IMG/VR virus record: IMGVR_UViG_3300016471_001132 | Coordinates: 1-64,000 of that record | DNA from: a virus | Direction: 5' to 3' (one strand) | DNA length: 64,000 nucleotides | Part shown: positions 10,425 to 39,255 of the stretch, piece after piece | How the letters are laid out: every line of letters starts with the position of its first letter | Position numbering within the stretch: the stretch's first letter is position 1 | Made by a program: the position numbers and the translations under genes | Notes under the pieces: model-generated | Told to the model about the DNA's origin: nothing | The model's database searches: none | What the model saw: the letters and a program-made list of their open reading frames with translations, nothing else

Positions 10425-10783
10425 CGGTCGTACACAAAAGGTGCTAGTTTAGGAGGTTCCCAGCCTTCGGGCTTGAGTACTTTGCCATCTTCGCGTTTAG
10501 TGACGCGTCCGGTCTTGGGATCTACTTTGTCAAAGTTTGATCGCATGACTTCTTTCCAAGCGCCTTCGGGATTCACCCCTAGACTATGTAGGGCACCCAC
10601 AGTGACGACTAAAATATCGATCAGGGCGTCAAGATCGTCCACGACATTGTCGCTGGCGCAAAGTTCATCAAATTCTTCCTTAATGAGATTGCAATACAGT
10701 TGATATTGTTCCAAATTCAACTGATCCGTGGTCTGACCACAGGCCTGCATGAATTTGCGCTGATCGTTGAATACATCACTCAT
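10421..10783 (-). CDS. MazG/PRA-PH-like nucleotide pyrophosphatase
   Basis: LIKEEFDEL...DALIDILVV, VMRSNFDK, GKVLKP motifs. Confidence 0.75.
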   Translation of the reverse strand: MSDVFNDQRKFMQACGQTTDQLNLEQYQLYCNLIKEEFDELCASDNVVDDLDALIDILVVTVGALHSLGVNPEGAWKEVMRSNFDKVDPKTGRVTKREDGKVLKPEGWEPPKLAPFVYDR

Positions 10784-11396
10784 TTAAGTCTTTCTGGATG
10801 CGGCGTTGCAGATAACTCAGTAGTAGACCATACGCTGGTAAGATCACTACTAGACTGACGATGATCTTGCTGATGCTGTTATTGGTAGCCACCACATGCC
10901 AGTTCGCTGCCATGAACTCGTTGGCACCCTGGTAGAATGCTGTGAAAAAGAACACATAGGTGTCAATGAATGTAGACACCACTGCGCTTAGGCTAGGTGC
11001 GATCCACCAGGTCTTGTAGCGTTCACGGAAATACTGGAACACATACACATCAAGCAAATTGCTGATCAAGTAAGCCACACCGGAGCCTAGGCCGATACGG
11101 AAGGCGGTGCTCCAAGGAGCTCCACCAAAGCCTACTACCAAGACCGAAACGATGATGGCTGGGATGAACGCCAGACCGATCACTGCTCGTCCCAGTTCCT
11201 TGCCCAACAACCTAACTGTGAGGTCGGTCAAGACCACCACCAAGGGGAAAGTGAACGCTGCTACAGCCAATGGGTTGCCAGCGATGTCGATCTTGAACTG
11301 CACCAGATAGTTGCTGACAGCGATGATGATCACATGCGCGATCATGAGTTTGTAGGCCAAAGCCCGATCAATACCATTTAAAATCTTAGCCAACAT
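10776..11396 (-). CDS. yhhQ: queuosine-precursor transporter (VUT/YhhQ family)
   Basis: Multi-TM protein; SNYLVQ, FTFPLVVVLTDLTVR..G, SNLLDVYVF, IDTYVFF motifs. Confidence 0.85.
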   Translation of the reverse strand: MLAKILNGIDRALAYKLMIAHVIIIAVSNYLVQFKIDIAGNPLAVAAFTFPLVVVLTDLTVRLLGKELGRAVIGLAFIPAIIVSVLVVGFGGAPWSTAFRIGLGSGVAYLISNLLDVYVFQYFRERYKTWWIAPSLSAVVSTFIDTYVFFFTAFYQGANEFMAANWHVVATNNSISKIIVSLVVILPAYGLLLSYLQRRIQKDLNE

Positions 11397-11407: not shown

Positions 11408-11905
11408 TTAGTTATGTTGTTCTTCTGGGTTCCAGCGTCTCCACCACTCTTCCCAAGGGAAAACGATCCATTGTGGATCTGACACTTTGTTGATGGATTC
11501 TGCTGAGTAATCCGGCGTGTGTATGCTATCGCTGGCTTCGTTGTCGTACAGTACAGCCACACGCACATTCCTGCCCCAATCCACTTCTGGACCCCAATCA
11601 TCCTGTATCCAGTTGAGTGTAGCACCCGAGTCGTTGATGTCATCCACAATCAGGATGTTGAGTGAATCGACAGCATCGCCTTGCATCCAGAGATTGCTCT
11701 CGCAATCCGTGTCATCATCACGCAGGCTGACTTTGAGAGTATGCATGGGCACATTGAGATACTGGCTGATGAGATTGGCTGGAGTAAGTCCACCACGAGT
11801 GATACCCACCACATAGTCAGGTACCCAACGATCTGCCCACATCTGGCGCACCAGTTCCTGCACCTGGCGCTGTACATCATTCCAACTCACATAGACTTTT
11901 TTCAT
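11408..11905 (-). CDS. type I phosphoribosyltransferase (xanthine/guanine PRT-like)
   Basis: VVGITRGGL, ILIVDDINDSGATL and WIVFPWE motifs. Confidence 0.88.
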   Translation of the reverse strand: MKKVYVSWNDVQRQVQELVRQMWADRWVPDYVVGITRGGLTPANLISQYLNVPMHTLKVSLRDDDTDCESNLWMQGDAVDSLNILIVDDINDSGATLNWIQDDWGPEVDWGRNVRVAVLYDNEASDSIHTPDYSAESINKVSDPQWIVFPWEEWWRRWNPEEQHN

Positions 11906-12885
11906 GCAGCCTTTCGATCTTCTACATTGTTAGACAGCTGTTCCGAGATCCAGGCATAGGTCTTCTCGATACCATACTCGAGATTCTCGTCAGGACTCCA
12001 ACCTATGGTCTCTCGTATCAGCTTGTTGTGGCTGTTACGACCCATCACGCCCATTGGACCTGGTATATTTTTGATTGTAACAGGTTTGCCTGCGATGGTC
12101 GATATCAGTTGGACCAATCCGTTGATAGAAATCATCCGTTCTGATCCCAAATTCAGGGGGATATCACAATCAGATTCCATGATGCGATGGATGCCTTGGA
12201 TGCACTCGTCGATGTACAGGAACGATCTCGTCTGGATACCAGGACCCCATACCTCTACTTCACCATTGGTGCTGGCAGCAACTTTCCGGCACAAGGCAGC
12301 CGGCGCCTTTTCTTTGCCGTTGTTCCAACTGCCCAATGGCCCAAAGATGTTGTGGAAACGGGCGATCCTGGCACGGATTCCATAGTTCTTGGCGAAGGCC
12401 ATGAACAGGCGTTCGGAAAACAGTTTCTCCCAACCATATTCACTGTCGGGATTGGCAGGATAGGCCGACTCCTCGCTCAAGAGAGGATTGTCAGGATCTT
12501 CTTGATTATGGCTGGGATACATGCAGGCCGAGCTGGAATAGAACACATTTTTGACGCCCTTCTTCACCATCTCTTCTGCGATGTTGAGATTGATCATGGC
12601 CGAGTTGTGCATGATGTTGGCATCGTTTTCACCAGTGAAGATGTAGCCAGCACCGCCCATGTCCGCAGCCAGCTGATAGATAGTGTCGATATCTGGAGTC
12701 ACCAGTTGTCGTACATTCCGCTGCTCGCGCAGATCCATGAGATAGAATTCGTCGGCATCGCTTTTTTTATACTCGTGCTGTTTGATGTCAGCACCAATCA
12801 CATAATAACCTTTGCGTTTGAGATCGGTCACGAGATGCCCGCCTATAAAACCACCTGCTCCACATACCAAGACTTTTTTCTGCAT
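11902..12885 (-). CDS. GDP-mannose 3',5'-epimerase-like SDR; start revised to MQKKV at 12885
   Basis: GAGGFIG, LAADMGG.GYI, SSACMYP, YGWEKL, TRSFLYID motifs. Confidence 0.88.
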   Translation of the reverse strand: MQKKVLVCGAGGFIGGHLVTDLKRKGYYVIGADIKQHEYKKSDADEFYLMDLREQRNVRQLVTPDIDTIYQLAADMGGAGYIFTGENDANIMHNSAMINLNIAEEMVKKGVKNVFYSSSACMYPSHNQEDPDNPLLSEESAYPANPDSEYGWEKLFSERLFMAFAKNYGIRARIARFHNIFGPLGSWNNGKEKAPAALCRKVAASTNGEVEVWGPGIQTRSFLYIDECIQGIHRIMESDCDIPLNLGSERMISINGLVQLISTIAGKPVTIKNIPGPMGVMGRNSHNKLIRETIGWSPDENLEYGIEKTYAWISEQLSNNVEDRKAA

Positions 12886-12905
12886 TTTATTTTCCTTTAA
12901 AATAT

Positions 12906-13520
12906 CTATGCTCGTTCTAACTGGTAAAATTGCCAGTACTGTCCATTCCATCCGTGATATGATCCGGGATCAAAATATTTAGACTTCACGATTTGCAATC
13001 CTGCAACATCACACAAGTGTTGAATCTCCTCTTCGGTTCGGAAAAAATGCATGCCGCTGTCGATGAGTTGATGGCGGATTTTATGGCTAACATTTTCCAA
13101 GGCGTCGGCACTTTTGAGACAACTAAACTGACAATAGATCTTACCGCCGGGCAAAAGATTTATCGACCGCAAAATACGCTCGCACTCTTTGTCATCGCAG
13201 TGTATCATGACCAGGTGGCATATCGCCATGTCTACAGGCGGGATCTGGTCAATTTGTTGGGTGTGCCATGCACCAGATGTGTAAGGTCCGGCTTTGGTCA
13301 AGGCTTTGTCGCTGATATCTGTACAATACAAAGTCGCCACCAGTTTAGACAGAGGTTCGGTCACTGTGACTAGCCCCACACCTATCTCTAGACATTTGAT
13401 ATTTGCTAGACTTTCCTTGGTCAAATCATAGGCCTTAAGGATCTGGTCTAGGCTGGTGCCCGTAAGCCATGTTCTGGTATTTTGGGTGTGCTGATCTTCC
13501 CAGAACTCTTTGATGCTCAT
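12906..13520 (-). CDS. class I SAM-dependent methyltransferase
   Basis: CLEIGVG motif I; CTDIS motif. Confidence 0.7.
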   Translation of the reverse strand: MSIKEFWEDQHTQNTRTWLTGTSLDQILKAYDLTKESLANIKCLEIGVGLVTVTEPLSKLVATLYCTDISDKALTKAGPYTSGAWHTQQIDQIPPVDMAICHLVMIHCDDKECERILRSINLLPGGKIYCQFSCLKSADALENVSHKIRHQLIDSGMHFFRTEEEIQHLCDVAGLQIVKSKYFDPGSYHGWNGQYWQFYQLERA

Positions 13521-14353
13521 TGGCCGGATCCTAGCATCTGTTCCACTATGCGGGCTATACCTTGTCGTAGGCCTATTTCCGGTTGCCAGTACTGCAGAAT
13601 ATGTGGATCAGGTTCATTCTTCGCATCTTTTTGCACAGTGTCTTTTCCCTCTGCAGGCCGTATCACAGTCCCTGGGAAATGTTCTGCTATGATAGCAGCG
13701 ACCTCTAGCATGGTCGACCATTGGAAGTTGGTGATATGATATTCTTTATCTTTTGGCAAAGTTTGATATCGTTGAGCCAGCACATACAAAGCCCTGCTGC
13801 AGTCATCGGCGTGCAACATCTGTCGGCTTTCGGTTCCATCGGTCCGCATGTCAATGACTTTTTTGTCACGCGCCTTGTTGATAAAGTCAGTGACCACATG
13901 GGTTTTTTCTGGATCAAGTTCTATGCCATAGACATTCCAAAATTTCACTACAAGGCCATCCAATGTGCGAGTGATCTTTTCGGCCAAACTTTTGGTCAGT
14001 CCGTACGAACTATAGCTCATACTGGCCATCTGGCTGGAAGCAAAAATAAATGGTTTTTTGGCTTCTCGCAGGCATTCAAACACATTGTGCATGATGGCCA
14101 CGTTGTTCATCATGAATTCATAGGTGTCTTGGTATCGGGCCAGATAGGTACTACCGCCCACGTCCCATGCTAGGAAGTATACAAAATCACAGTCGTCCAG
14201 CGCCCGGCGCAGTCCGGGATTATACAAGCGACGAAGATCATATCGACCACCGTCCGCGATATCAAATTCTACCACTTGATGTCCTTGGGCACGGAGATAC
14301 TGGCACAGGCTGAGCCCTATCTGTCCTTTGGATCCCAACACTAGATATTTCAT
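13517..14353 (-). CDS. NAD-dependent epimerase/dehydratase; start revised to MKYLV at 14353
   Basis: GSKGQIG, FASS, YGLTK motifs; ATGA overlap. Confidence 0.85.
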   Translation of the reverse strand: MKYLVLGSKGQIGLSLCQYLRAQGHQVVEFDIADGGRYDLRRLYNPGLRRALDDCDFVYFLAWDVGGSTYLARYQDTYEFMMNNVAIMHNVFECLREAKKPFIFASSQMASMSYSSYGLTKSLAEKITRTLDGLVVKFWNVYGIELDPEKTHVVTDFINKARDKKVIDMRTDGTESRQMLHADDCSRALYVLAQRYQTLPKDKEYHITNFQWSTMLEVAAIIAEHFPGTVIRPAEGKDTVQKDAKNEPDPHILQYWQPEIGLRQGIARIVEQMLGSGQ

Positions 14354-14958
14354 CGGATGATCTGGCCTTTTTTGCGCAATATGGTCAATCCATGATTGAC
14401 CGGAATGGTGCTCCACTCCCACACAGCGGAATCTAGTTCAGCCACAGCACGATAAGGACCGCCACCGGCCCATTGGGCATCAGTGGTGTCTGGATCTGAT
14501 CTATAGTTGGGATGCCCAAATGAATGCATTAGGTCATGCAGGAGGATAACAGTAGAAGGCGTGCAGATTGGCGCTAGTAGTTCCAATTCACGTTTGACAT
14601 GAGGATAACTGTGCCAATCGTCGATGTAGATGAGATCGTATTGGCCGGGTCGAGCAGGATCTATATTTTGTTCTAGCCATGCATGAGCATCGCTTTGGAA
14701 AAATTTCCAATAAAGTTTGAGATCTTCTGGACACCGGAATGTTGTCTGATCGAGATCAACAGAATGCACGGATCCACCCAATTCTTTGGCGGCACAGAGA
14801 AATGGCAAAGTTGTGTTGCCGGTGCGCACCCCTAATTCCAATATCTTTCTCGCATGGATCTGCATGGCAATGCTGAAGCAAGTTAATACATGGCGATCGC
14901 TGTCTTCTTGGCCGTGTTTTACCTTGTTGAGGAGATATTGATAGATTTCTGATCTCAT
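14350..14958 (-). CDS. class I SAM methyltransferase (Methyltransf_24-like)
   Basis: ILELGVRTG, SVD, DLIYIDDWH, ILLHD motifs. Confidence 0.8.
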   Translation of the reverse strand: MRSEIYQYLLNKVKHGQEDSDRHVLTCFSIAMQIHARKILELGVRTGNTTLPFLCAAKELGGSVHSVDLDQTTFRCPEDLKLYWKFFQSDAHAWLEQNIDPARPGQYDLIYIDDWHSYPHVKRELELLAPICTPSTVILLHDLMHSFGHPNYRSDPDTTDAQWAGGGPYRAVAELDSAVWEWSTIPVNHGLTILRKKGQIIR

Positions 14959-15884
14959 TTGATGTCCTTAATGATTTCTGGCAGGTCCTGATCTTTGAAC
15001 CCCCAGTCGGTGGTTCCGGGCTGGGCGGCCAGACCCTTGATATCTAGACTGCCAAACGCCACATCCTGCGGGCGTCGATCGTGATGCTGATGGAACACGC
15101 ACAAAGGGCTGACCCAGACCTGCTGTTTGATCTGAGCTGAGCCAAAGCGCATGAGGCTGATGCTGTCGACGTGCCATCTGTGTTGGATGGTTTCATACAT
15201 GCCGCGTACGGTGAAGAAGACTTCTCTGGCCGCCAACATAAAATCGCCGCAGCCATTGGTATGCCAAGCATCTGCCGCGATTCCCGAACGGGGCAAGAGA
15301 TCTAAGGTTCGTTCATTTTCATGCACGGGTTCGCTCACGCTGGTAGCATCGGCCATGGCATGCACCACAAAAGTATTCTTGACAGCGAAATCCTGCAGAT
15401 CTTTGCTGTCTACATCGCAGATGCCCTCAGTATGAAAGTCATAACGATCTGTGCGATAAACGGTGTCTGCCCGCAGGCGTTGTTTTGCGATCTCGTCAAT
15501 AAGTTCTTGAGTGAAAATGATATCTGGGTTGGTCACCAGCACAAATTCTCCCCGAGCACGACGGATACCCACATTTTTACCGTGAAATTCCAACACAGGA
15601 TGTTCAGTGCCAATGGTATTATGTAACTCTGCAGACACTGTTACGACTCTCACTGGTAGATGATGCGTATCATCTACCACATCAGCCAAAGGGGCGTAAC
15701 CATCCAAGGGGTTCCATTCCACGACAATCAGTTCGAACACTCCGGGATAACCAGCGGTCTGATGATCCAAGCTGCGCACGAAAGTATTGATACGGCCGAC
15801 AAAATCGTCACCATAGCCATCATTGCGGCCCACTATGACCACGCTGACATAGGGTTTGTTGTTGCTAGTGGTTTTCTTTTTCAT
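14955..15884 (-). CDS. GT-A fold glycosyltransferase
   Basis: VSVVIVGRND, KNVGIRRARGEFVLVTNPDI, HQHH motifs. Confidence 0.75.
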   Translation of the reverse strand: MKKKTTSNNKPYVSVVIVGRNDGYGDDFVGRINTFVRSLDHQTAGYPGVFELIVVEWNPLDGYAPLADVVDDTHHLPVRVVTVSAELHNTIGTEHPVLEFHGKNVGIRRARGEFVLVTNPDIIFTQELIDEIAKQRLRADTVYRTDRYDFHTEGICDVDSKDLQDFAVKNTFVVHAMADATSVSEPVHENERTLDLLPRSGIAADAWHTNGCGDFMLAAREVFFTVRGMYETIQHRWHVDSISLMRFGSAQIKQQVWVSPLCVFHQHHDRRPQDVAFGSLDIKGLAAQPGTTDWGFKDQDLPEIIKDIK

Positions 15885-17029
15885 GTTGGGATCTCGATTA
15901 CATCTCCGGCCTGGGCCAGTGTTTGGAAATTCACATATCCGGCATATCGCAGGGCTAGTGTTTGGCGCACAGACTCTGGCATCTTGACACAGGGTTCTAT
16001 AATCATTGAATATCCTTGATCAAGCAGTTGTTTGCACAGTGCCAACTGTTGGCTTTCTTCGTAGATGTCAGTATCGGGCTTGTAACTGATAGATCTCATG
16101 TAGAATGGCTTGCGATCTGGGTTAAGCGATATAAAGTAGTTGGCCAAGAAAGCAGTGTGATCTCGGTTGAACTGGTCTACTATGGTGCCCAAAGGAAAGT
16201 CCAATCCTATCTTGCGAGCGTAGTGAGCGAATGCACGATTGTCTCGCGGTAAGCATGGTCCACCATAGCCAAATCCATAACGAAGATATTTGTTACCAAT
16301 CCTGCTGTCCGCACCGATGGCCCGCAGGGCGCGATCTACATCCTCTTCCAGTCCTGATCTTACCAGCACTTCGCCCACCATGTTGGCATAACTGATCTTG
16401 GTAGTGAGGAAACAGTTGGTCCCGATCTTGACCAGTTCGGCAGCCGTGAGGCTCATGGTATGCACATTGGGAGATTTCTCGGATTGGATCTTGTCATAAA
16501 CCAGTTTGTATCGATCCATGACTTCTTGATCTTCGCCGCCGATCAACACCATGTCAGCATGCTCGAGATCGCGGATGATGGATCCCTGGGCGATAAATTC
16601 GGGATTGTACAAAACATGCACACCACGGTCGCGCAACTGATCCTGTATCTTCTGGCAATCGCCGGGATTGGTAGTACATCCGATCACTAATACTTTTCCA
16701 GAGATATCAAACGCAGATTCTGCCACATCCTGCACCACACGCTCTACTGCAGTGATGTCATAGCTACCGTCGGCGCGGCTGGGTGTGGCCACCATGACAT
16801 AGATGATATCGCTTTGTTGTATCACGGCCCGTGTGTCGGTAGTGAAATCGATATTGCAATCTGGCAACATTTCAGCCACACCGGGTTCGGTGGTGGTGAT
16901 GCGACGATCGTTGAGTCCGGCCACATAGTTGGTCCTGATGTCACTGCCGATCACGCGATGTCCACCTCGATCCAACAGCAGTGCGAAACAGATGCCGAGT
17001 CTGCCTACTCCGATAACTCCAATGTTCAT
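15881..17029 (-). CDS. ugd: UDP-glucose/GDP-mannose 6-dehydrogenase; start revised to MNIG at 17029
   Basis: GVGRLG, YNPEF..G, AELVK...N, GFGYGGPCLPRD motifs. Confidence 0.9.
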   Translation of the reverse strand: MNIGVIGVGRLGICFALLLDRGGHRVIGSDIRTNYVAGLNDRRITTTEPGVAEMLPDCNIDFTTDTRAVIQQSDIIYVMVATPSRADGSYDITAVERVVQDVAESAFDISGKVLVIGCTTNPGDCQKIQDQLRDRGVHVLYNPEFIAQGSIIRDLEHADMVLIGGEDQEVMDRYKLVYDKIQSEKSPNVHTMSLTAAELVKIGTNCFLTTKISYANMVGEVLVRSGLEEDVDRALRAIGADSRIGNKYLRYGFGYGGPCLPRDNRAFAHYARKIGLDFPLGTIVDQFNRDHTAFLANYFISLNPDRKPFYMRSISYKPDTDIYEESQQLALCKQLLDQGYSMIIEPCVKMPESVRQTLALRYAGYVNFQTLAQAGDVIEIPT

Positions 17030-17802
17030 AGTTTCTCCGCTGTGATCATGAGATGCCAGCCCAACCTCTTCTCCAGCACGCGGAAGATTTCTGGAGGCAT
17101 GTGTTCGAACCAAGGCTGTTTCAAATATTGGCCGGCCTTGTAAGGTTCAATCTGAAAAGGAAATATATGATCTTGCTCAACAGAAACAATGCGGAATCCC
17201 GAACCGATCATGCTGATCAACTGGTCTTCGGTGTAAGTGTACGCGATGGGACAACCATATTGAGCTTCTGGTTGATCGTGCCCTGCTTCGATCATGAAGT
17301 TTTTCCAAGAATTGGCTGCATAAACCATGACTTTGAGAACAGTGCCCGGACGCATGTAAGACTGTGCTTGTCGCAATATCTCTGCAGGATTGGGGCTGTG
17401 ATGTATGACTCCCCAGGTAAACACAAGATCATATTCCTGCACGGGTACGAAATCCGTCATCTGTTCAGCATTGCCTTGATAGAATCGACCCTGATGGCCA
17501 TAGACATCAAATCTTTGTTGGGTCAGTGCAAGACTTTCTTTGCTAAGTTCTATACCTGTGTAATCGGCGCCAGCTCGGGCGAAATTGATTGCCATGGTAC
17601 CGATGCCCGAACCAATCTCCAGCACCTTTTTACCTTGCCACCGATCGAACTCACAAAAGGCCGGGATGTGGGGTTCTGCTGTGAGTTTTTTCTGTTCTAC
17701 TTCATCAAAATATTCTTTTGACCCTATGGGTTTGTTACTGTGCCTGACGTTGCAAGGTCTTGCGTCCCAAAACTCCTGCACTTGTTGGATGGTCACGGTC
17801 AT
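17026..17802 (-). CDS. class I SAM-dependent methyltransferase
   Basis: VLEIGSGIG, GIELS, YDLVFTWGVIHH motifs. Confidence 0.85.
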   Translation of the reverse strand: MTVTIQQVQEFWDARPCNVRHSNKPIGSKEYFDEVEQKKLTAEPHIPAFCEFDRWQGKKVLEIGSGIGTMAINFARAGADYTGIELSKESLALTQQRFDVYGHQGRFYQGNAEQMTDFVPVQEYDLVFTWGVIHHSPNPAEILRQAQSYMRPGTVLKVMVYAANSWKNFMIEAGHDQPEAQYGCPIAYTYTEDQLISMIGSGFRIVSVEQDHIFPFQIEPYKAGQYLKQPWFEHMPPEIFRVLEKRLGWHLMITAEKL

Positions 17803-18615
17803 CTATCGTCCCAGTCGTATTTTTTCGCCACGCCTCAGCGCAGCCATTTTCTCAAAAGGATCTTGTTTGCCTTCTCTGGCCCGATCCCACCATGACATGT
17901 CTTCACCTTGGTCTCTCAAGGTATCGGCCAACTGTTGGGCATCCTTGATTCTACGATCATTCCATGCAGCATGATAAAAATCTCTAGGATCATAAGGATT
18001 GCCCTCTAGCATGGGACGATTGGCAAAGGTCTCATCATTGTTGTTTCCAGTGAGATCAGCACGATCATGCAACACATCCACATCGATGTCTTGCATGATG
18101 TCCAGCATGTAGCCCAGATAACTGCACCATGTATCAGTGAGTTGATGCGGACTTAGATAACCGAACATTTCAAACCACTGGTGAGGCACTATGGGGAAAA
18201 TAGCATAAGGGTGTCCGTTGTGTGTGGGCATGCGCAACACACGGAATCGTCCTGTCTGCTCGCGGATACGGCTATCCCAGCCCTGGCTGCGCATCACAGC
18301 ATCGTCGCCCCAGAAAAAAAACCAATCGCCCTGAGCCGACTTTGCCAGCTCGTTGAGGTATTCGTTCAAGCGTAGATACCCCAAACGCTGAAATCCCATG
18401 GCGGTGTATCGCACACCCAGTTCTGTCAATCTCGGGGCTATATTGGCCACAAACCAGTCATAACTGGCTGTGTCATCGTCGTCGAAAGCCAACAGCATTT
18501 CGATGCTGTGTGGATCATCGGCCAATTCGGCCAGTGTCAGCAAAGCTGTTTTGAGACTGTGAGTGCGCCCTCGAGTGGGCAGGAGCATGCTGATAGCTAC
18601 AGGTTTATCGTTCAT
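17803..18615 (-). CDS. GT2-like glycosyltransferase
   Basis: LLPTRGR, FDDDD, FFFWGDD motifs. Confidence 0.75.
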   Translation of the reverse strand: MNDKPVAISMLLPTRGRTHSLKTALLTLAELADDPHSIEMLLAFDDDDTASYDWFVANIAPRLTELGVRYTAMGFQRLGYLRLNEYLNELAKSAQGDWFFFWGDDAVMRSQGWDSRIREQTGRFRVLRMPTHNGHPYAIFPIVPHQWFEMFGYLSPHQLTDTWCSYLGYMLDIMQDIDVDVLHDRADLTGNNNDETFANRPMLEGNPYDPRDFYHAAWNDRRIKDAQQLADTLRDQGEDMSWWDRAREGKQDPFEKMAALRRGEKIRLGR

Positions 18616-18653
18616 ACCTTAATTATCTGTAGCTATCGCACGCCTGAGTATTT

Positions 18654-19157
18654 TTACGACAGTAGGTCTTCATTCCACTCACGGTGTCCCTCGCGGAATG
18701 CCATGTTTGATTGTGTTTCACGCACTTCCACTCTATAGCACCATAGACGCTCGGCCTCGCTAGGACCCCACATGTCGGGGATATAGACGCCATTCACATA
18801 CTTGTACAGCATGTCAGCAAGACCTTCACAGCCCAAGCGTGGCAGCACTACGATCTTGGCCATGTTCCGGGATTGCAACAACTTGAAAGTCTCCATCTCA
18901 GGATCGTCTTGTGCCACGATCAAGGTATGGTCGAACTGATCTTCTAGGATCTTTTTCAGTTCCTTGAGCCCGCCATAGTCGGCGGCCCAGTTACGCACAT
19001 CAAGATCGTCGGTGCCGAAGTAGAACTTCATGGAAAAACTGTAACCATGGATCAGATTGCAATGGCTGTCGGCACGCCATTGGCGATAAGCACAGGGAAA
19101 TGCGTCGTGATACTCTTTGGTTGATGTGTATTTGTACACACGGGTTTGATTGCTCAT
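18654..19157 (-). CDS. queD: 6-carboxy-5,6,7,8-tetrahydropterin synthase; start revised to MSNQ at 19157
   Basis: SHCNLIHGY, DYGGLK, FDHTL motifs; SD AGGAG precedes 19157. Confidence 0.88.
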   Translation of the reverse strand: MSNQTRVYKYTSTKEYHDAFPCAYRQWRADSHCNLIHGYSFSMKFYFGTDDLDVRNWAADYGGLKELKKILEDQFDHTLIVAQDDPEMETFKLLQSRNMAKIVVLPRLGCEGLADMLYKYVNGVYIPDMWGPSEAERLWCYRVEVRETQSNMAFREGHREWNEDLLS

Positions 19158-19163
19158 GCTTGA

Positions 19164-19226
19164 TCTCCTATCATATGTTAGCATAGGCGGCAGAGTTTAT
19201 AGAGCGGGGATGACGCCAAGACCGCT
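19164..19226 (-). ncRNA. candidate riboswitch-like H-type pseudoknot in the queD leader
   Basis: P1 AGCGG/CCGCU, loop GGCG pairs with downstream CGCC, A-rich linker, competing CCUAU/AUAGG hairpin over the SD. Confidence 0.45.
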
Positions 19227-19234
19227 GGGAAAAA

Positions 19235-19639
19235 TTATTTATCAGTGGGATTTTTATATCCAGGGTTTTTATAGTTGGCCTGTCCCGGGATCACTCCGCG
19301 CACACCGCCCACTGGATCTTGGGTATCGCCGGTCCTACGCGGAATGAGATGCACATGCGGATACATCACAGTCTGTCCGGCACTGGGGCCCATGTTGATA
19401 CCTATGTTGTAGCCATCACAATCGCCCTGTTGTTTCAGGGCCTCGCCCCAACTTAATGCCACGCTCATGGCAGCACCGATATCGCTGACATTGACCATCT
19501 TGGGCACAAACAATAGATGTCCTTGTGTCACTGGATATTTGTCTCGATATATCACCAAGTTAGGCAGCTCTTTTACTATCTCCGTCCAAGGAGCCACTCC
19601 TTGTTCTTGCGCTTGCTCTAGATGTGTTTTGATTACCAT
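19235..19639 (-). CDS. HIT family hydrolase
   Basis: YPVTQGHLLFVP, GYNIGINMGPSAGQTV..HVHLIPR motifs. Confidence 0.88.
   Translation of the reverse strand: MVIKTHLEQAQEQGVAPWTEIVKELPNLVIYRDKYPVTQGHLLFVPKMVNVSDIGAAMSVALSWGEALKQQGDCDGYNIGINMGPSAGQTVMYPHVHLIPRRTGDTQDPVGGVRGVIPGQANYKNPGYKNPTDK
19236..19241 (-). promoter_or_regulatory. TAAATA late-promoter-like motif upstream of the queD leader
   Basis: Recurrent motif upstream of many minus-strand genes. Confidence 0.5.
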
Positions 19640-22059
19640 GTTGATTTGATCTCCATTTTTATAGCATGTGAACTTTGTGTTGATACCATGCCTACTGCAT
19701 TGAATGTCGTGTGCCGGGTGATCGATGTTTGATAACCCATCCTAGCGAAGGCTGTCAAGGGATTATCAAATCCGGTCTTGACACTAGTATATTGGATCTG
19801 ACCGCGATTGTCAACACCTGTGGGCAAGGTAAGGTCAACCGATCCACTGATGATCTTTGGCAAAGTACCGGCACCGATCTGCCAGTCTCCAATCATGTAA
19901 GTCACATCTCCCCAAGCCGCTGTGATGGGATTGACTCGCGTTACCAGTCCAGGATCGATCTGCGTGGTAGTATACATGCTACCACCACGCAGTCGCCAGT
20001 GATCCTGCCGCCACGCCACAGTGGCTTCTGCGGTCATCGTAGATTTCACTGTGCCCCAACTACCACTGATGTTCATCCAAGGCGAATAAGGCAAGGCGGT
20101 GAATTGCCATGTGGCCCAGGTGTGTTTTCCTAACCTGTAATCCGGCATCCCAAACACACGGCTACGATTATCCGCGCTGGCTCCATATCGGAATCCATCG
20201 CTTTGTCCGTATTGCAGATCGGTAGCCATGGCCAATGTTCGTGCGCTGTCATCTTTTTCATCAAGTCTAGAGGACCAAGCATTGAGCATGTTCGTGCTAG
20301 TCGACGAATAGTCCATTTCCCAGGCACGACCATGATCATCTTGCACCCGGAGAGAGGCAGCCAGGCCGCCCAATTTCACGCCACTGATAGAACCAGACAA
20401 GGGCCGGAATCCCGATACCGTGGGCATGGCGATGTTTCCTGTGGGCGACAGAGCCAAACTGGGATCCAGCAAGCTCAGGCCCAGATATGTCCTGGTGCTT
20501 TGGCTCATGATGGTGTCAATCTGGCTGGAACTCAACCAAGGCCAGTTGGCGGTTATGGTCGCCCGGGTTTGGTTGTAAGTCATACCATTCAGTGGCGTGA
20601 TGTAGATAGTCCTGTGCGTGGCATGGCCTAGATTGTTTGGATCGGTACCTACTGCTGTGGCGATATACATGGTGCCGCTGGCATCTTGTATCAAAGCAAC
20701 ACCTGTAGCCACGAAACTGGTATTGCTTTCCAGTGATTTGGCACCATCTTGGAAGGCCTTCAACACCGTGGCATAACTAGACTGATACTCAAAGCCGTAA
20801 ATGTTAGTGGAACTGTTCCAGATCAGCACTTGAGCACCGGAGTTGCTGGACCAAGAGTTGCCAGGCAGCACGATATCCAGTCGACCGTCACCATTGATGT
20901 CTTTGAACGAGGCATTGTAACTGGCCACAGTGCCGGTGTCGTATCCTTTGAGCACAGTGTCTGTGATATCTGTGAAGTTACCTGTTCCGCCGTTCTTCAA
21001 GAACTGCACTTCACTGAGATCCGGCCACTGTCCGCCGACTTGATTGGCTCGGCTGATGATCACAGCATCGCTGACCACGCCCTGGCTAGATGCCTTCTTG
21101 CCGGTTGAAAGTTCGATATCAGCCAACACGCGCACCTCGTGCCCACCGTTGGGTGCTTGAACTGCCCATTTCGGCAGTTCGAATCTTGGAGTAGGCAATG
21201 CACTGACATGTGTGACATCTACCCTATTATTAGCAAGATCGATCACATAAGAATAGAGATTGTTGATGCTGCCAGTGGTTGCCTTGGCGCTGCCTTGGTC
21301 AGTGAAGATCACACCCTTGGTGCCCACCGCTGTAAAATCGGCGATAGCGATGCCTGCTCCGCCGGCTTGGGGATTGCCTGCCACTGCGAGCCTGGTAAAT
21401 GTCCTGTTGGCGTTGCCGAGCAAAACCGTGGAACTCCCTCCTGCAGTACTCCAAACGTCATCTCGGCCATCACCATTGAGATCCGCGATGGCCGAGGCAT
21501 GTGCATGTGTAGTGGCTTCGAGCACGATGTCTGTTCGATGATTGAAACTGGAACTACCACTGTTAAAGAACACTGCTCCGGTGCTGGACAACTCGTAACC
21601 GCCGCGCAAGGTTATATCGTCGGTGTAAGGCCCTGCGTACATGTCAGTGTGGCCATCACCGTCAAAGTCACCAAATTTGACTTCTTCTTCGACACCTGTG
21701 ACTCTACGACTCACTCCAGTACCAAACCATTGATCAGTTTTGTCTATCAGTGTGCCACCAGACCAACCCCAGATGGAAATATCAAAATTTTGCCAAGTGG
21801 CTGCTGTGGCTCCACTGGGATTCTGCCGGCCGATCAATATCAACTCGTCGCCTGCAGTGGAATCGATGTCATGAGATATCAGAGCGGTCTCCGTGGCAAC
21901 TGCCCCTGTGCCGCTCAAAGGTTTGATCGAACCTACTCGAGTAAATTGCGAATATGAGGATCCAGAACTGCTGCCGAGCGCACCGCCTCCACCGCCTCCA
22001 CCACAGGCAGTAAGAGCCAGGCTGACTGAAACAGCCAGTGATGTCTTTGCAAAACGCAC
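19633..22059 (-). CDS. lipoprotein with FG-GAP repeats and a probable C-terminal beta-barrel (lipidated autotransporter-like), 808 aa
   Basis: Signal peptide with lipobox LTAC plus poly-Gly; DFDGDG, DLNGDGRDD, DINGDGRLD repeats; amphipathic aromatic C-terminal strands ending in W. Confidence 0.65.
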   Translation of the reverse strand: MRFAKTSLAVSVSLALTACGGGGGGGALGSSSGSSYSQFTRVGSIKPLSGTGAVATETALISHDIDSTAGDELILIGRQNPSGATAATWQNFDISIWGWSGGTLIDKTDQWFGTGVSRRVTGVEEEVKFGDFDGDGHTDMYAGPYTDDITLRGGYELSSTGAVFFNSGSSSFNHRTDIVLEATTHAHASAIADLNGDGRDDVWSTAGGSSTVLLGNANRTFTRLAVAGNPQAGGAGIAIADFTAVGTKGVIFTDQGSAKATTGSINNLYSYVIDLANNRVDVTHVSALPTPRFELPKWAVQAPNGGHEVRVLADIELSTGKKASSQGVVSDAVIISRANQVGGQWPDLSEVQFLKNGGTGNFTDITDTVLKGYDTGTVASYNASFKDINGDGRLDIVLPGNSWSSNSGAQVLIWNSSTNIYGFEYQSSYATVLKAFQDGAKSLESNTSFVATGVALIQDASGTMYIATAVGTDPNNLGHATHRTIYITPLNGMTYNQTRATITANWPWLSSSQIDTIMSQSTRTYLGLSLLDPSLALSPTGNIAMPTVSGFRPLSGSISGVKLGGLAASLRVQDDHGRAWEMDYSSTSTNMLNAWSSRLDEKDDSARTLAMATDLQYGQSDGFRYGASADNRSRVFGMPDYRLGKHTWATWQFTALPYSPWMNISGSWGTVKSTMTAEATVAWRQDHWRLRGGSMYTTTQIDPGLVTRVNPITAAWGDVTYMIGDWQIGAGTLPKIISGSVDLTLPTGVDNRGQIQYTSVKTGFDNPLTAFARMGYQTSITRHTTFNAVGMVSTQSSHAIKMEIKSTW

Positions 22060-22089
22060 GATCGCTCCTAGGGTAATAGCATTGATACT

Positions 22090-22119
22090 ATTTTACTCTA
22101 AGAGCGATTTTTTGGTCAA
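22090..22119 (-). promoter_or_regulatory. sigma70-like promoter TTGACC-N18-TAAAAT for the 808-aa gene
   Basis: Minus strand TTGACCAAAAAATCGCTCTTAGAGTAAAAT. Confidence 0.65.
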
Positions 22120-22142
22120 TCGCAGGGTTAGTGCCTACTAAC

Positions 22143-22841
22143 CTAGCGCGGAGCGTAGTCTTGCTGGAGTTTGATGTTGTCGGTGAACTCTTTTTTCACT
22201 GCAGGATCCGTCCGGAACGCACCGTGTAGCACAGTGGTCTGGGTGAGACTACTATGCGCCATGATACCACGGTTCTCGCAACAGCCATGAGTAGCTTGGA
22301 TATACACACCCACATCCTTGGAGTCAGTGGCCCGCATGATTTCTCTAGCGATGTCATTGCAGAGTTCTTCTTGTAGGGTTCCTCTACGAGCACACCATTG
22401 TGCGATACGAGTATACTTGCTGAGTCCGATCAGTTTCTGTGCGGCAAGGATGCCAATATAAGCAACCCCAACAACGGGTTGATGATGATGGCTACACATA
22501 CTACGAAGTTCACTACGAACCACGAGCATGCCCTCGTAACGGTCTTCTGAATCGTTTGGAAACGCTGTGCAATCGGGTGCTGGATCATATCGACCTCCCA
22601 TGATTTCATTGAAGTACATCTTGGCCAAACGGCGTGCTGTGCCCTTTGAGTTGGGATCGGTCTCCCTATCGATCAGGAGCCGATCCAGCACCAGTTCAAA
22701 GGCTTCGGTGGCTTCGTCGATTAGAAACTGTTTATCGGTGTCGCGCACATAGTCCGAGATGTTGTCTCCGGCCCAGAATCTTTTGTTGTTGTCACGCATG
22801 TTTTTGCGGATGATATCGCTGAGGTATTTTCCTTTTTCCAT
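22143..22841 (-). CDS. folE: GTP cyclohydrolase I
   Basis: T..RLAKMY, SMCSHH, GLSKY.RI, LQE.L, H.C...RG motifs. Confidence 0.95.
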   Translation of the reverse strand: MEKGKYLSDIIRKNMRDNNKRFWAGDNISDYVRDTDKQFLIDEATEAFELVLDRLLIDRETDPNSKGTARRLAKMYFNEIMGGRYDPAPDCTAFPNDSEDRYEGMLVVRSELRSMCSHHHQPVVGVAYIGILAAQKLIGLSKYTRIAQWCARRGTLQEELCNDIAREIMRATDSKDVGVYIQATHGCCENRGIMAHSSLTQTTVLHGAFRTDPAVKKEFTDNIKLQQDYAPR

Positions 22842-22881
22842 TCTATTTTCTCCGAGTTAGGGTCGAGGATGACCAGTCATG

Positions 22882-23463
22882 TTAATCAATGATCCGGATG
22901 TCTCTGCAGTCCGGGTATGGGATGTATTTAGGTTTTTCATTGACTTTGGGCAACAATTCAAGACCTAGTTCTGCTTCTTCTATAGTTGGTCGGTAATGGT
23001 AACCAACTCTAAACACTTTCTGTTCCGACCAAGGGGCGATGGCGAGATCCCTGCCATCATAGCGTTGTTCCAATAAAATCCTGTAAGCCTTGGCATCATC
23101 CAACAGTATAGCACCACCTCGACCTATCTGTAAAGGCTTTCCGGGTCCAAAACTCAAACACTGCATCTGTCCAGGTTTGTACATGTCACGCTCTAGTCTG
23201 CGGGCACTGTCCCAGACTCGGCTACCGTGGAATCGATATTCGCCGGTCCACTCTTCGGGGATGAGCTGATATTCTATGCCCAGTTTGTGCATCAGCATGG
23301 GAATCGATAGATAGGTATAGGCAGTGAATGACAGATGTTTTGGGCGCTCATGACGCAAACACAATTCGATTGCATGTGTACAACAATCGGTCATGATGGC
23401 ATATGGCGCACCAGTGTACTCGGCCAACGAGCGCTCAAATTCTAGTATGGCATCAAAAGTCAT
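22882..23463 (-). CDS. short DegT/DnrJ/EryC1-like PLP aminotransferase (193 aa)
   Basis: FE...AEYTGAPYA, DSA, SFGPGKPL.IG.GG (PLP Lys), GY.Y motifs. Confidence 0.7.
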   Translation of the reverse strand: MTFDAILEFERSLAEYTGAPYAIMTDCCTHAIELCLRHERPKHLSFTAYTYLSIPMLMHKLGIEYQLIPEEWTGEYRFHGSRVWDSARRLERDMYKPGQMQCLSFGPGKPLQIGRGGAILLDDAKAYRILLEQRYDGRDLAIAPWSEQKVFRVGYHYRPTIEEAELGLELLPKVNEKPKYIPYPDCRDIRIID

Positions 23464-23520
23464 TGGCTGAGATCATCTCTTTTGATTTTGGACTCACTGT
23501 CTGGGGCTGCCTTATTGAGG

Positions 23521-24471
23521 TCACCGGGTATACCATCGCCAGGCATGAGAGATGATGTCATCCAACCCAAATTTCGGAGTCCACCCAGAGATTGCATTCC
23601 ATCTGTCAGCTGATGCGGTGAGAATGGCAGGATCTCCAGATCTCTTTGGACCTATGCTGATGTCACATTGTTTGCCTGTTATGCGTTCCGCGGCTGAGAT
23701 AATCTGGCGATTACTGAATCCATTCTTTGTGCCAAGATTGAAAACACCCGCGGCATATTGCCTATCTATGGCCTGCACATGGGCGTCGGCTATGTCTTCT
23801 ACATGCACATAATCTCTCACACAAGTACCGTCATCTGTGGGATAATCATCACCATTGAGTACAAACTCGCGGTTGTCTCTCAAGCTCTCCAAGACTCTAG
23901 CGATGATGTGTGTGGCACCAGGTTTTTGTCCATGGCGTGCCTGGCTGTCTGCGCCGCAGGCATTGAAATAACGGAAAGCCACGAAATCCAGTCCATAGGC
24001 CTGGCGATAGCTCTGCAGCATCCACTCGATCATGAGTTTGCTTTCGCCGTAGGGGCTGATAGGCTCACAGGGATCAACTTCGCTACAAGGAACCATGACT
24101 GGCTCTCCATAACAGGCAGCCGAACTGCTGAAGATCACACGGGTATTGATTTTATTGTCCACGATGTAATCTAATAATTTTTTTGTTTTGACAAAATTAT
24201 TATGATAATAGTCGGCAGGTCTTCCCAGGCTAGGTCCTACCAGACTGGAACCGGCACAATGCACAATAGCCGCTGGCTCAAATTGTTGCAGGAGATCCAG
24301 CCCATATGAACTACTAAAATCTTCTTGATAGAATCTATCGGCCACGGATCCTAGATGTCTCGGGCAGACTACAGTATCTACACCAATGACTGTGTGCTCT
24401 TGATCTTTGAGACGCAACATGGTCTCGCCACCGATATATCCGGCAGCTCCTGTGACGATGATGGTGCTCAT
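23521..24471 (-). CDS. galE: UDP-glucose 4-epimerase
   Basis: TGAAGYIG, FSSSAA.YG, PYGESK, RYFNACG, DGTCVRDYVHV motifs. Confidence 0.92.
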   Translation of the reverse strand: MSTIIVTGAAGYIGGETMLRLKDQEHTVIGVDTVVCPRHLGSVADRFYQEDFSSSYGLDLLQQFEPAAIVHCAGSSLVGPSLGRPADYYHNNFVKTKKLLDYIVDNKINTRVIFSSSAACYGEPVMVPCSEVDPCEPISPYGESKLMIEWMLQSYRQAYGLDFVAFRYFNACGADSQARHGQKPGATHIIARVLESLRDNREFVLNGDDYPTDDGTCVRDYVHVEDIADAHVQAIDRQYAAGVFNLGTKNGFSNRQIISAAERITGKQCDISIGPKRSGDPAILTASADRWNAISGWTPKFGLDDIISHAWRWYTR

Positions 24472-25670
24472 GGCTGTCTCCGTTGGTATTTGTCCCCGGA
24501 TACATGATCACGATATCTATTGCCTGCGCGATTCCACTGCTCACCGGCCCCGGTGATTATGTCCACGATCCTATCTATTGTACCATCGTTCCAGTCAGAG
24601 ATCCGACCCATGTTGTGATGGGGTTCATCCAACAACAATTCTAATTTAATAAAGGCATCATCCATGCTCCAAGGAATATAGAGCCTATCAGGATCATTAG
24701 CAAAAGTTTCAGGAAAACTACGATAAGCAGGATATAGAACATTACAACCAAGAGTGTCGGCCTCCGAGACGGTGTTTGAGACCCAGTCCTGTAGAGCGCA
24801 ATTAAATAATACGCGAGTATCATTAAGCAGATCGTAATAATCATTTTTCTTCAGGCCATCATAGATTTTTAGTTTACCGTCTCTTTGCATCTGCTCAGCA
24901 CGCTGCAGATAGTCAGGATTGTTGCTACGCAAAGGCCCACCAGAAAACACAGCGAACTCAACGTCTCGGTATCTGCCTTGTGTGTGATACATCTCGATGA
25001 GATCCATAAAGAATCCAGGTTGTTTTTCTTGATCGAATCGGGCAGCGAACCCCACACGCATTGTGCGACCGTCAAATGGTCTGATACGGCCAGCGCCGCC
25101 GATGCGTTCCTGTACTTCCTGTTTGCCAAACGCCAAGCCCGAGATGTTGTAGATGGGAGCGGTCCAGCCAGCGATGCGCATATGTGCCACCATCTCTTCG
25201 TTGGTAGCCAGCACATGCACACCGGGGATCTGGTTTACCATCTTTTCATAAGTCGACATCCAGCCTGCCATGCCCCAGACATGAACGAAATCATCCGGAT
25301 CAATGGCTTGAGCAAGACAACGGACAAAAATGCGAGGACGCTGAGACTCAGGCACTTGATCAAGAATATAAGGTAGGCTCTCGATACCGGGCTGAAACAT
25401 GTCTTCAAAGTAGATAACATCTTCATTGGTGACCTCTCCGTTGCGCATCATCTGCACTAGGTTCATCATCTGACTCATGGAGAAATAACTGCGACCATGT
25501 GCGTCTAACACTTGGCCCACAGAGATCGATTGTGTGTTGTCGATGGTCGAACCGGGCACATATACAACATCTAGCCCACGACGATCAAACACACGCCGAT
25601 TCCATTCTGTGAGTTGAAGGGTATAGCGAGCCTCATATGATTCGAGGCCCATGTAGAACAACTTACGCAT
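24468..25670 (-). CDS. GT-B (GT4-like) glycosyltransferase; start revised to MRKLF at 25670
   Basis: FAARFDQEK.P and QDWVSNTVSEA..LG (variant of the E-x7-E motif). Confidence 0.75.
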   Translation of the reverse strand: MRKLFYMGLESYEARYTLQLTEWNRRVFDRRGLDVVYVPGSTIDNTQSISVGQVLDAHGRSYFSMSQMMNLVQMMRNGEVTNEDVIYFEDMFQPGIESLPYILDQVPESQRPRIFVRCLAQAIDPDDFVHVWGMAGWMSTYEKMVNQIPGVHVLATNEEMVAHMRIAGWTAPIYNISGLAFGKQEVQERIGGAGRIRPFDGRTMRVGFAARFDQEKQPGFFMDLIEMYHTQGRYRDVEFAVFSGGPLRSNNPDYLQRAEQMQRDGKLKIYDGLKKNDYYDLLNDTRVLFNCALQDWVSNTVSEADTLGCNVLYPAYRSFPETFANDPDRLYIPWSMDDAFIKLELLLDEPHHNMGRISDWNDGTIDRIVDIITGAGEQWNRAGNRYRDHVSGDKYQRRQP

Positions 25671-25675
25671 GGCTA

Positions 25676-25882
25676 TTACCTCCGGGCGTCTTGCTGCCAC
25701 ATGTCCTTGGCGTGTTTGCCCTGGATCTTTTTGTTGAACTGTTGGTAAGCGTAGCTCTTCCAGTTATAGAGATCTTTCTCGTCATATTTGTAGCCATAGT
25801 CCTGGCAGAATCGCAAGTATTGTTCGAGATCATCAAAAACTTGGGTCACGCGATGGTTGGGTTTGAATGTGGGTCGAGCCAC
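25676..25882 (-). CDS. hypothetical protein (68 aa)
   Basis: SD AGGAG; tight packing. Confidence 0.7.
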   Translation of the reverse strand: MARPTFKPNHRVTQVFDDLEQYLRFCQDYGYKYDEKDLYNWKSYAYQQFNKKIQGKHAKDMWQQDARR

Positions 25883-25892
25883 GATAGTCTCC

Positions 25893-26333
25893 TTAGATGA
25901 CTAGGTTTTGTGAAGGACGGGTTGTATTATATTCAATTACACAGCCGTTTTCGTTGTCTTCGGCCACTGAGATAGTGACATCTCGGCCTGGATAACGATC
26001 GGCTATGTGTATATATAGGTCGTCGGCAATCATCTCACAACTTTTGTAGTCGAGCTGTAGTGTGCCTTGATAGAGACGCTCCAACCAGCGTTTGAACTGG
26101 ATGAACTCGATGTCGCGATCATTGTGGAACACTTGGATGCCGACTCGGAAATGGAAGATATGGCGATGGGCTACACCCAGGAATGCGACATCATCCCAGT
26201 CACCTGTGGCCAGTTTGGGATCTGTATCAGCACCAGGATACTTGTGGATGCCTTCCCGCTGGAAAGTGACCCAGATCATCCTTCGAGCATGATCCTTGAT
26301 GCGTTCTGCTGTTTCTCTTTGTTCTTGGTTCAT
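25893..26333 (-). CDS. dpdL: QueD-like T-fold protein, DpdL-like (putative CDG decarboxylase)
   Basis: LGVAHRHIF matches the LxxxHRHxF signature I recall for DpdL; SCEMIA and EDNENG T-fold motifs; next to the TGT-like gene. Confidence 0.65.
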   Translation of the reverse strand: MNQEQRETAERIKDHARRMIWVTFQREGIHKYPGADTDPKLATGDWDDVAFLGVAHRHIFHFRVGIQVFHNDRDIEFIQFKRWLERLYQGTLQLDYKSCEMIADDLYIHIADRYPGRDVTISVAEDNENGCVIEYNTTRPSQNLVI

Positions 26334-26860: not shown

Positions 26861-27044
26861 CTTCTTGATCGTGTTCGTACTGTTTGCGACGCAACTCAGA
26901 CAGTTGGTCTTTGAGTGCCAGTTTCTGTTTCTTTAGCGTCTGCATAGTAGCGTCGTCGAATCTACCTGTTGATTCCAGTCCACGGATCTTTTTGTCCAAG
27001 GTCTCGTGCATCATCTCCAGGTGACGGATACGATTCTCATACAT
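26844..27044 (-). CDS. DUF465/YdcH-like small coiled-coil protein
   Basis: L...H..LD..I...LKKQKL.LKDQL pattern. Confidence 0.65.
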   Translation of the reverse strand: MYENRIRHLEMMHETLDKKIRGLESTGRFDDATMQTLKKQKLALKDQLSELRRKQYEHDQEVGHDE

Positions 27045-28572
27045 CTACGCTCTCCTCTAGGTCGTCTAGTTTGTGTTGATCTAATTCTTCTTGGGGTTCA
27101 AATTCTTCTTCTACATCAAACAGGTTGGCAAACATGGTATGTGCGTTCACTGCCCGTTTTCCGGTAAAGCCGCGTGTGCCCACAACCCTTTCCCATACTT
27201 TAGCATGATCATCGATTATGGCCAAGCTCTTTTGGCGATCGCGAGCCGCGAATATCCGATCGATGACTTTTCGAACATCATAGTCGCTGTTAGTGGGATG
27301 CACCATCATGTCCGGACAGATCCCTTGGTCGTACAAGCGATTGGCGCGCTGCACAGATTCGATGTGCATCCAAACGTTGTGACCCATCATCAGGGCGTAA
27401 CTAAAGCTGTCCCAAGATGTTTTGCCTTCTTTACCGATCTTGTTGACATCACCGGGCTTGTACACGCAGACATCTCGGATCTTCAATCGAGACGAGATAG
27501 GACTGTCTTCAAATTCTGCATGGATGCCATCTGCCATCACTGCATCACGGAAGGATCTATTGTCAGTGGCATATTTTTTGTCATCGGCTGTGGGACTCAT
27601 CTGGTATGACCATTTGCTTCGATTGTCTGCCAAAATGCTATGATAGATCTGCCCATTGGCCGTGGCCAGGAACGGACTGGCACAGTCAAAACTGATGGTG
27701 AAGTTGGAGTTGTGATACTTGCGAACAGCACGTTGGATGTCAGTGAGCAACACTGCCCATTCCAGTTTTGATGTGCCCAAGAAGTGCATCCAGTCATGCG
27801 CACCTTTTTCCAACAAGCCATCGTGGATGAGATGAACCAATCGTTTCAGCACAAGATGCACATCACACATGTTCTGGCCTCCCATGCCCCACCCATTGAA
27901 ATGATTCTTGTGTTTTGCAGGATCACAATAATCTTTCATTAGATCGTACCAGTGGTCGGCTTCGGCGTGGTTACCGCCTTGCAACACATTTAGTATCTTG
28001 GTCTCACCGTAGCGATTGGACATCCAGTATTCGTTATTGTGCTGCGTGGCTCGCACAGCATCTTCATAACTGAAGATACCGCAGGCCTGGGCAGCAATTG
28101 GATCACGGAAGGTCCATGTGGGAATATCCATGGTCATGCCATAGGTAGCAATACCCATCTGCCACTTCAATACCTTTTCGCGTTGTGCTTCGGCTTTTTT
28201 ATCAGTGAAGTCTGCCCAACGACCTGGCCACACACCCTTGGCGATCTGGAATCCTCCAGAGTCGGCCAGCATGATAGTGTTAGCATCTCTATTGCGTACC
28301 ATGTCCTCTTTGGGATCTGGCTTGTTGAGGTCTAAGTTGGCATGACCAGCTGAGTAAAGGCTCCAGCGATACGGGAACAATCCTTGTTGTGGATTGAGCC
28401 AGTTCATCTGCTCCATGTCTGGCATGGCCGAGGGCATGCGACTGGGTTCTACATAGGTAGTGGTCCTCTGCCGACCGATGTAGCTGGCGTAGAATGAACT
28501 GATGGCCGGCAGGAATATAGCATAATCATTCTGCTTGGCTGTGAGATCGTCTTGTGCGTTATTTTGATCCAT
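27037..28572 (-). CDS. dpdA: TGT-fold guanine transglycosylase, DpdA-like (alternative start 28590)
   Basis: ADSGGFQI, MTMDIP, NVLQG, GWGMGG, HFLGTS, SFDCASP, HN motifs; in the folE/queD/queE neighbourhood. Confidence 0.8.
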   Translation of the reverse strand: MDQNNAQDDLTAKQNDYAIFLPAISSFYASYIGRQRTTTYVEPSRMPSAMPDMEQMNWLNPQQGLFPYRWSLYSAGHANLDLNKPDPKEDMVRNRDANTIMLADSGGFQIAKGVWPGRWADFTDKKAEAQREKVLKWQMGIATYGMTMDIPTWTFRDPIAAQACGIFSYEDAVRATQHNNEYWMSNRYGETKILNVLQGGNHAEADHWYDLMKDYCDPAKHKNHFNGWGMGGQNMCDVHLVLKRLVHLIHDGLLEKGAHDWMHFLGTSKLEWAVLLTDIQRAVRKYHNSNFTISFDCASPFLATANGQIYHSILADNRSKWSYQMSPTADDKKYATDNRSFRDAVMADGIHAEFEDSPISSRLKIRDVCVYKPGDVNKIGKEGKTSWDSFSYALMMGHNVWMHIESVQRANRLYDQGICPDMMVHPTNSDYDVRKVIDRIFAARDRQKSLAIIDDHAKVWERVVGTRGFTGKRAVNAHTMFANLFDVEEEFEPQEELDQHKLDDLEESVDV

Positions 28573-39247: not shown

Positions 39248-39255
39248 TGTACTGT

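Follow-up and report, generated by a model that had tools for sequence, protein, structure and literature searches.

The 77-nt gap upstream of a QueD-like gene in an uncultured, T4-like giant phage carries a leader whose predicted RNA pseudoknot is kept in well over a hundred related phage contigs through compensating changes. We regard this queD leader as a phage-specific cis-regulatory RNA, most likely a translational ON riboswitch, a reading that we favor while leaving considerable weight to others. The DNA analyzed here, hereafter the window, is the first 64 kb (64,000 nucleotides) of the 136-kb IMG/VR phage record IMGVR_UViG_3300016471_001132, estimated to be 39% complete; its genes lie on the minus strand throughout, and all window features given below are on that strand. 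The first-pass annotation had described the leader as a riboswitch-like pseudoknot of preQ1-I layout, and the RNA string on which it relied is letter-exact for 19155-19241. Its overall interpretation is partly supported by comparison with relatives, and the riboswitch label is one that we infer.

Structure and conservation of the queD leader

The leader gap (19158-19234) separates a HIT-family gene (19235-19639; PF01230), whose TAA stop lies at 19237-19235, from the gene for a 167-aa QueD-like protein of the 6-pyruvoyl-tetrahydropterin-synthase (PTPS) type (18654-19157; PF01242 at 3.2e-15; phrog_2389, QueD-like, at 2e-36). Translation of the latter is assigned to the AUG at 19157-19155, and its product is 53% identical to the QueD-like protein gp119 of phage ACP17. 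An alternative 176-aa ORF starting at 19184 was rejected as the queD start: its AUG is part of a UAUG that is conserved as one arm of a hairpin, and in other loci it is out of frame. The window protein, the protein of locus L082 (3950-4426) and ACP17 gp119 all carry the motif CxxxHGY in place of the canonical QueD motif CxxxHGH, so that one zinc-ligand histidine is changed. At another locus (L081, 2044-3492), a gene for a 276-aa class-I SAM methyltransferase stands between the leader and the QueD-like gene, and the leader there directly precedes the methyltransferase.

The predicted aptamer, about 45 nt long, is an H-type pseudoknot built of two crossing helices, P1 and P2. P1 joins AGCGG (19222-19226) to CCGCU (19203-19207), with 99.6% of the alignment cells paired, and encloses L1, UCUU (19218-19221), whose C and U are near-invariant (conservation line of alignment A2, invariant columns of alignment A1). 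The 5' strand of P2 (19211-19217) consists of GGCG, a mismatched U and CA, and its 3' strand (19186-19192) of UG, a mismatched C and CGCC; GGCG (19217-19214) pairs with CGCC (19186-19189) and CA (19212-19211) with UG (19192-19191). L2, UCC (19208-19210), has one extra C in the window copy, and the C that adjoins the 3' strand of P1 (P1b) is invariant. L3, CUAUAAACUC (19193-19202), is a highly conserved A-rich loop of 10 nt with an invariant U, three invariant A residues and an invariant UC. The 5-bp P1 proposed in the first-pass annotation is borne out by covariation, as is the loop-to-tail pairing GGCG/CGCC, but P2 is longer than had been drawn, since it continues beyond the U.C mismatch into CA/UG, where A:U is replaced by G:C in three leaders.

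Both helices vary in a manner that preserves pairing. Compensation is seen at two P1 pairs (G-C replaced by C-G or U-A; C-G replaced by U-A or A-U), and the P1 combination AGCGG/CCGCU is exchanged for ACCGG/CCGGU, AGUGG/CCACU, AGAGG/CCUCU or AUCGG/CCGAU. The combinations seen in P2 include GGCG/CGCC, GGCA/UGCC, GGCU/AGCC, GGUG/CACC, GGCUU/AAGCC, GACA/UGUC, GGCAU/AUGCC, AUGGCAU/AUGUCAU, UGACGC/GUGUCA, GACUU/AAGUC and AGACAU/AUGUCU. In the structure-naive MAFFT alignment (A1), 91% of pair cells are paired compared with 39-54% when the partners are slid, and 34 cells carry double changes against 9.4 ± 2.4 in shuffles, a value reached by none of 500 shuffles. In an alignment of 100 distinct leaders that was model-fitted to P2 but not to P1 (A3), standard pairs occupy 95.7% of pair cells compared with 29-45% for slid partners, and double changes occur in 8 of the 12 pairs (6 of the 7 in P2) and in 73 cells against 16.5 (0 of 500 shuffles); the fitting of A3 and A2 to P2 inflates these pair counts, a caveat that A1 and a mutual-information scan soften without removing, and the shuffle counts are not probabilities, as the leaders are related sequences. 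About 20% of the cells of the fourth P2 pair in A3 are unpaired unless a bulge is allowed.

In the unsupervised mutual-information scan, the highest-ranking pairs are again those of P1 and P2, and a further link appears between the fourth base of L3 and the central P1 pair. A central C-G accompanies C, U or G in L3 in 104 of 105 leaders, and a central U-A or A-U accompanies A in 10 of 10. Such covariation is like that of a base triple, as a minor-groove triple would give. G.U combinations outnumber A.C (29 versus 17, with 14 of the A.C cells being an alignment artefact of a bulged A), which points to an RNA of this strand. RNAalifold alone recovers P1. A different partner for the P1 5' strand, UCUGC, was considered and dismissed, as it fails to follow the P1 variants. 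The folding energy of the window copy by itself is no better than that of shuffled sequences (MFE -15.7 kcal/mol versus a shuffle mean of -18.1 ± 2.9; z = +0.83). On the comparative evidence, P1 is a real helix, and so is P2 between loop and tail.

The element is widespread among relatives of the source phage. A protein-guided search of IMG/VR provided 80 loci, out of at least 589, with QueD-like proteins 86-95% identical, and a leader profile (nhmmer) found a single copy in the window and a single copy in every one of the 79 loci for which upstream sequence exists. The gene upstream varies among these loci, and the leader is conserved regardless. A covariance model gave one strong match per large phage record in five records, including a complete 364-kb genome. 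An independent degenerate-pattern scan recovered more than 120 further stretches, and a QueD-type gene follows in all 79 testable cases, at identities down to 37%, so the RNA core is better kept than the protein behind it. The first-pass annotation had held that an absence of conservation or covariation in homologous leaders would speak against the element, and the contrary was found.

Outside these phages, the element appears to be missing. The QueD genes of the cultured phages ACP17 and Xanthomonas X1 abut the upstream gene with no leader between, and a blastn search of 50,697 phage records with the aptamer as query returned chance matches only. A pattern scan of bacterial genomes gave 41 matches, close to the estimated chance number, of which one alone scores as the element; this match lies on an 8-kb contig of a metagenome-assembled genome that is probably phage, and the next-best lies antisense within a moaA-like radical-SAM gene. 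By these searches, the element is phage-only, found in none of the cultured phage records or bacterial genomes searched apart from the one probably-phage contig.

Expression platforms and promoter-like boxes

The 3' strand of P2 is shared with sequences that mask the ribosome-binding site. In the window, the hairpin P3 (19167-19187) pairs CCUAU (19187-19183) with AUAGG (19171-19167) over the Shine-Dalgarno (SD) sequence AGGAG (19165-19169), which lies 7 nt before the AUG and whose GGAG is near-invariant. P3 is present in the MFE fold, and its CC is the last two C residues of the P2 3' strand, as the first-pass annotation had described for a competing, SD-covering hairpin. This platform, type 1, covers the SD with CCUAUG/CAUAGG, CCUAUG/UAUAGG or CCUAUA/UAUAGG in relatives, with the CC common to P2. 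In type 2, UGUCAUC/GAUGGCA covers the start codon and encloses an inner SD hairpin, a structure that is the MFE fold in most of the type-2 leaders that were folded, whereas in type 3 the P2 3' strand AUGUCU faces an AGACAU just after GGAG, with the downstream sequence copying the P2 5' strand. In all three types, the YUCU at the 3' end of L3 can also pair with the GGAG of the SD. No terminator was found at the leader.

Because the SD- or AUG-masking strand of all three platforms draws on the P2 3' strand, an ON logic is implied, in which knot formation would remove the masking strand; the ON-type wiring suggested in the first-pass annotation thus gains support from three separate designs. Generic features of riboswitches are present in the leader: an aptamer that is conserved and covaries, whose unpaired L1, L2 and L3 include invariant bases and which precedes the coding region of a metabolic gene, and a shared strand through which one aptamer is kept while the platforms vary. 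In the fold that covariation indicates, the P1 loop and the 3' tail form P2, the short L2 ends in the invariant C, and the A-rich L3 would contact P1. In the mechanism that we propose, transcription would start a few bases before P1 from an AT-rich box. The P2 3' strand together with the preceding YUCU would be the same strand that masks the SD or start codon. Once the knot is formed, presumably stabilized by a small ligand, the masking strand would be captured, the ribosome site would open and QueD would be made. End-product ON control of a committed biosynthetic step would be unusual, which counts against an ON riboswitch.

A genuine pseudoknot could also work under the control of a protein or small RNA, or free of any ligand, and all of the structural evidence fits such control equally well. 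It might serve as an autoregulatory or translational-repressor site in the manner of T4 gene 32, as a 5'-end stabilizer, or as a folding-kinetics or temperature switch. The hosts of the element are T4-like giant phages, in which autoregulation through an mRNA pseudoknot is known, and many H-type pseudoknots build a triplex with an A-rich L3 even when no ligand is bound. Nevertheless, the strict tie to one metabolic enzyme gene across protein identities of 37-95% and the retention of the aptamer while platforms are swapped, which is the usual signature of a riboswitch, argue in the other direction; in an unsystematic look, no gene for an RNA-binding protein was recognized as accompanying the element. 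We judge control of this kind rather unlikely.

Upstream of the aptamer lies a promoter-like ATAAATA box (19236-19242) that overlaps the TAA stop of the HIT-family gene. An AT-rich box of the form (A)TAA(A/G)TA or TATAAT occurs in 110 of 131 unique leaders, mostly ending 5-11 nt before P1, compared with 3.5% of random 40-mers. The window also holds a sigma70-like TGGATA-17-AATAAT ending at 19234, and some loci have a perfect TTGACA-16-TATAAT at the position of the upstream box. Transcription from this box would leave P1 at the 5' terminus of the mRNA. The first-pass proposal of a TAAATA motif from which the transcript starts near P1 therefore stands as far as the recurrent box is concerned, but the box itself is only promoter-like. 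ATAAATA occurs five times in the window (4047-4053, 19236-19242, 39242-39248, 45810-45816 and 62593-62599), always on the coding strand and at gene junctions, with a total count equal to chance expectation and only strand and position being suggestive; it may be a promoter motif of the phage. A reading of the box as a T4 late promoter was unsupported, the exact T4 late consensus TATAAATA being absent from the window.

The conserved block could instead act chiefly at the DNA level, as a promoter whose inverted repeats resemble an operator, the RNA fold then being incidental. Most type-1 leaders do embed a strong, near-consensus sigma70-like promoter, TTTACA-18-TGnTATAAT, which the first-pass annotation had not noted and whose -35 falls in L3 and -10 in the P3 loop; it scores 11/12 in L021 (2956-2985) and 10/12 in L066 (2936-2965), and at least 9 of 12 with the extended -10 (TG) in 83 of 90 type-1 leaders. 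Transcripts from this promoter would lack the aptamer, a complication for the riboswitch reading. However, such a -10 is found in 0 of 36 type-2 and 1 of 7 type-3 leaders, all of which keep L3 and the knot, so the embedded promoter cannot explain the knot, and the internal match of the window copy (19172-19202) is weak. The tolerance of G.U on this strand, the Watson-Crick compensatory changes in crossing helices and the complementarity of the P2 3' strand to the SD or AUG in three designs likewise argue for RNA, making a DNA element an improbable account of the block. The embedded promoter may be an aptamer-bypass promoter or a sigma-dependent pause site.

Comparison with known RNAs

The leader matches no catalogued RNA family in Rfam 15 by covariance-model searches. 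At a lax threshold, scans of a wide stretch and three narrow ones gave chance matches only (snoRNA, HTT-AS1, U6 and a gutted preQ1-II). The preQ1-I model (RF00522), with a gathering score of 39 bits, matched none of five leaders at E up to 10; the five records match it elsewhere only, at no more than 15.3 bits, and narrow scans of the window, L046 and L015 leaders at the same limit were empty. For preQ1-II and preQ1-III (RF01054 and RF02680), the sole match was a spurious 14.2-bit alignment of preQ1-II to the flanks with the whole aptamer deleted. The Infernal check suggested in the first-pass annotation thus gave no membership in preQ1-I, II or III. Text searches of the literature found no description of a queD or PTPS phage riboswitch.

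Even so, preQ1-I is the closest known family, and the preQ1-I-like layout upstream of a que gene that had been noticed first holds at the level of topology but not of family membership by the Rfam models. Both RNAs are H-type pseudoknots with a 5-bp P1 and a P2 formed by the P1 loop and the 3' tail, for which covariation in both crossing helices speaks in the leader. They also share a pyrimidine L1, an A-rich L3 of the UUACAAA type, a C at the end of L2 directly 5' of P1b, and a site before a gene of the 7-deazaguanine pathway. In preQ1-I, the A-rich L3 is docked on P1 and the conserved L2 cytosine pairs with the ligand. In contrast, the leader aptamer is about 45 nt compared with about 34 nt in preQ1-I, its P2 comprises 6-9 bp, interrupted by a U.C mismatch, compared with 3-4 bp, its L3 is longer (10 nt, ending in YUC) and its L2 is only 2-3 nt long. 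In the leader, the 3' strand of P2 is the anti-SD or anti-AUG strand, giving ON logic, whereas that of preQ1-I overlaps the SD or an antiterminator, giving OFF logic; moreover, the leader element is phage-only and occurs in phages without QueC. That the leader is a divergent true preQ1-I riboswitch, binding preQ1 or preQ0 and repressing queD, is the least probable explanation despite the shared topology, loops and pathway gene, given the empty RF00522 scans, the much longer P2 and L3, the ON wiring of the P2 3' strand and the lack of QueC, without which no preQ0 is made.

Other compact pseudoknots are more distant. Guanidine-III, SAM-II and SAM-V riboswitches are also H-type pseudoknots that control access to the SD, guanidine-III being an ON switch as well, but they show no sequence or model match to the leader and differ in gene context and conserved loop bases. 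The 5' pseudoknot of T4 gene 32 mRNA resembles the leader in that it precedes the ribosome site at the 5' end of an mRNA from a T4-like phage. It nucleates the binding of its own single-stranded DNA-binding protein, whereas the queD leader stands before the gene for a T-fold enzyme and its platform acts through competition between strands.

The 7-deazaguanine route and the candidate ligand

Further genes in the window bear on the 7-deazaguanine route. Besides the QueD-like gene, it contains FolE (22143-22841), a QueE-like radical-SAM protein (9097-9987), a YhhQ-family transporter (10776-11396) and a 146-aa T-fold protein (25893-26333) with no Pfam match and with a match to phrog_17812 (function unknown), whose LGVAHRHIF fits the signature LxxxHRHxF of DpdL, proposed for CDG decarboxylase (PMC10516641). 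A 517-aa ORF (27037-28590) with no Pfam or PHROG match gave a weak lead (0.93) to a TGT-like cluster in a protein-atlas feature search and may be a divergent DpdA. Neither QueC nor a Pfam TGT domain was found in the five large records, including the complete 364-kb genome, which confirms the absence of queC noted from the window. The que genes are interleaved at 11902-25700 with an 808-aa FG-GAP repeat protein and many nucleotide-sugar enzymes, among them epimerases or dehydratases, UDP-glucose dehydrogenase, methyltransferases and a short DegT-like protein.

The presence of FolE, QueD, QueE and a DpdL-like protein and the absence of QueC suggest that the probable end point of the route is CDG or 7-deazaguanine in DNA, as is the case for Cellulophaga phage phiST and for ACP17. 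Together with the invariant C beside P1, this pathway points to a ligand that is most likely guanine-faced, the candidates being pterins (H2NTP, for example), CDG, 7-deazaguanine, guanine and guanine nucleotides. More specifically, the leader may define a new riboswitch class restricted to phages. Its preQ1-I-like knot would respond to a guanine-faced metabolite from the 7-deazaguanine route by turning QueD on, and would thereby set the timing or the dose of phage DNA hypermodification. We advance this fuller proposal tentatively, as a possibility that falls short of being probable; H2NTP, CDG, 7-deazaguanine and guanine released by DNA transglycosylation are the candidate metabolites for it.

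To our knowledge, hardly any riboswitch class is confined to viruses, and we know of none that governs a DNA-hypermodification pathway. The element offers a clean test case, with abundant natural covariation, three natural platforms and a short list of candidate ligands from a defined pathway. If a ligand is found, the leader would represent a new aptamer on the smallest known riboswitch fold with the opposite logic, would provide a compact ON switch for engineering, and would show how giant phages tune the DNA modification that protects them against restriction.
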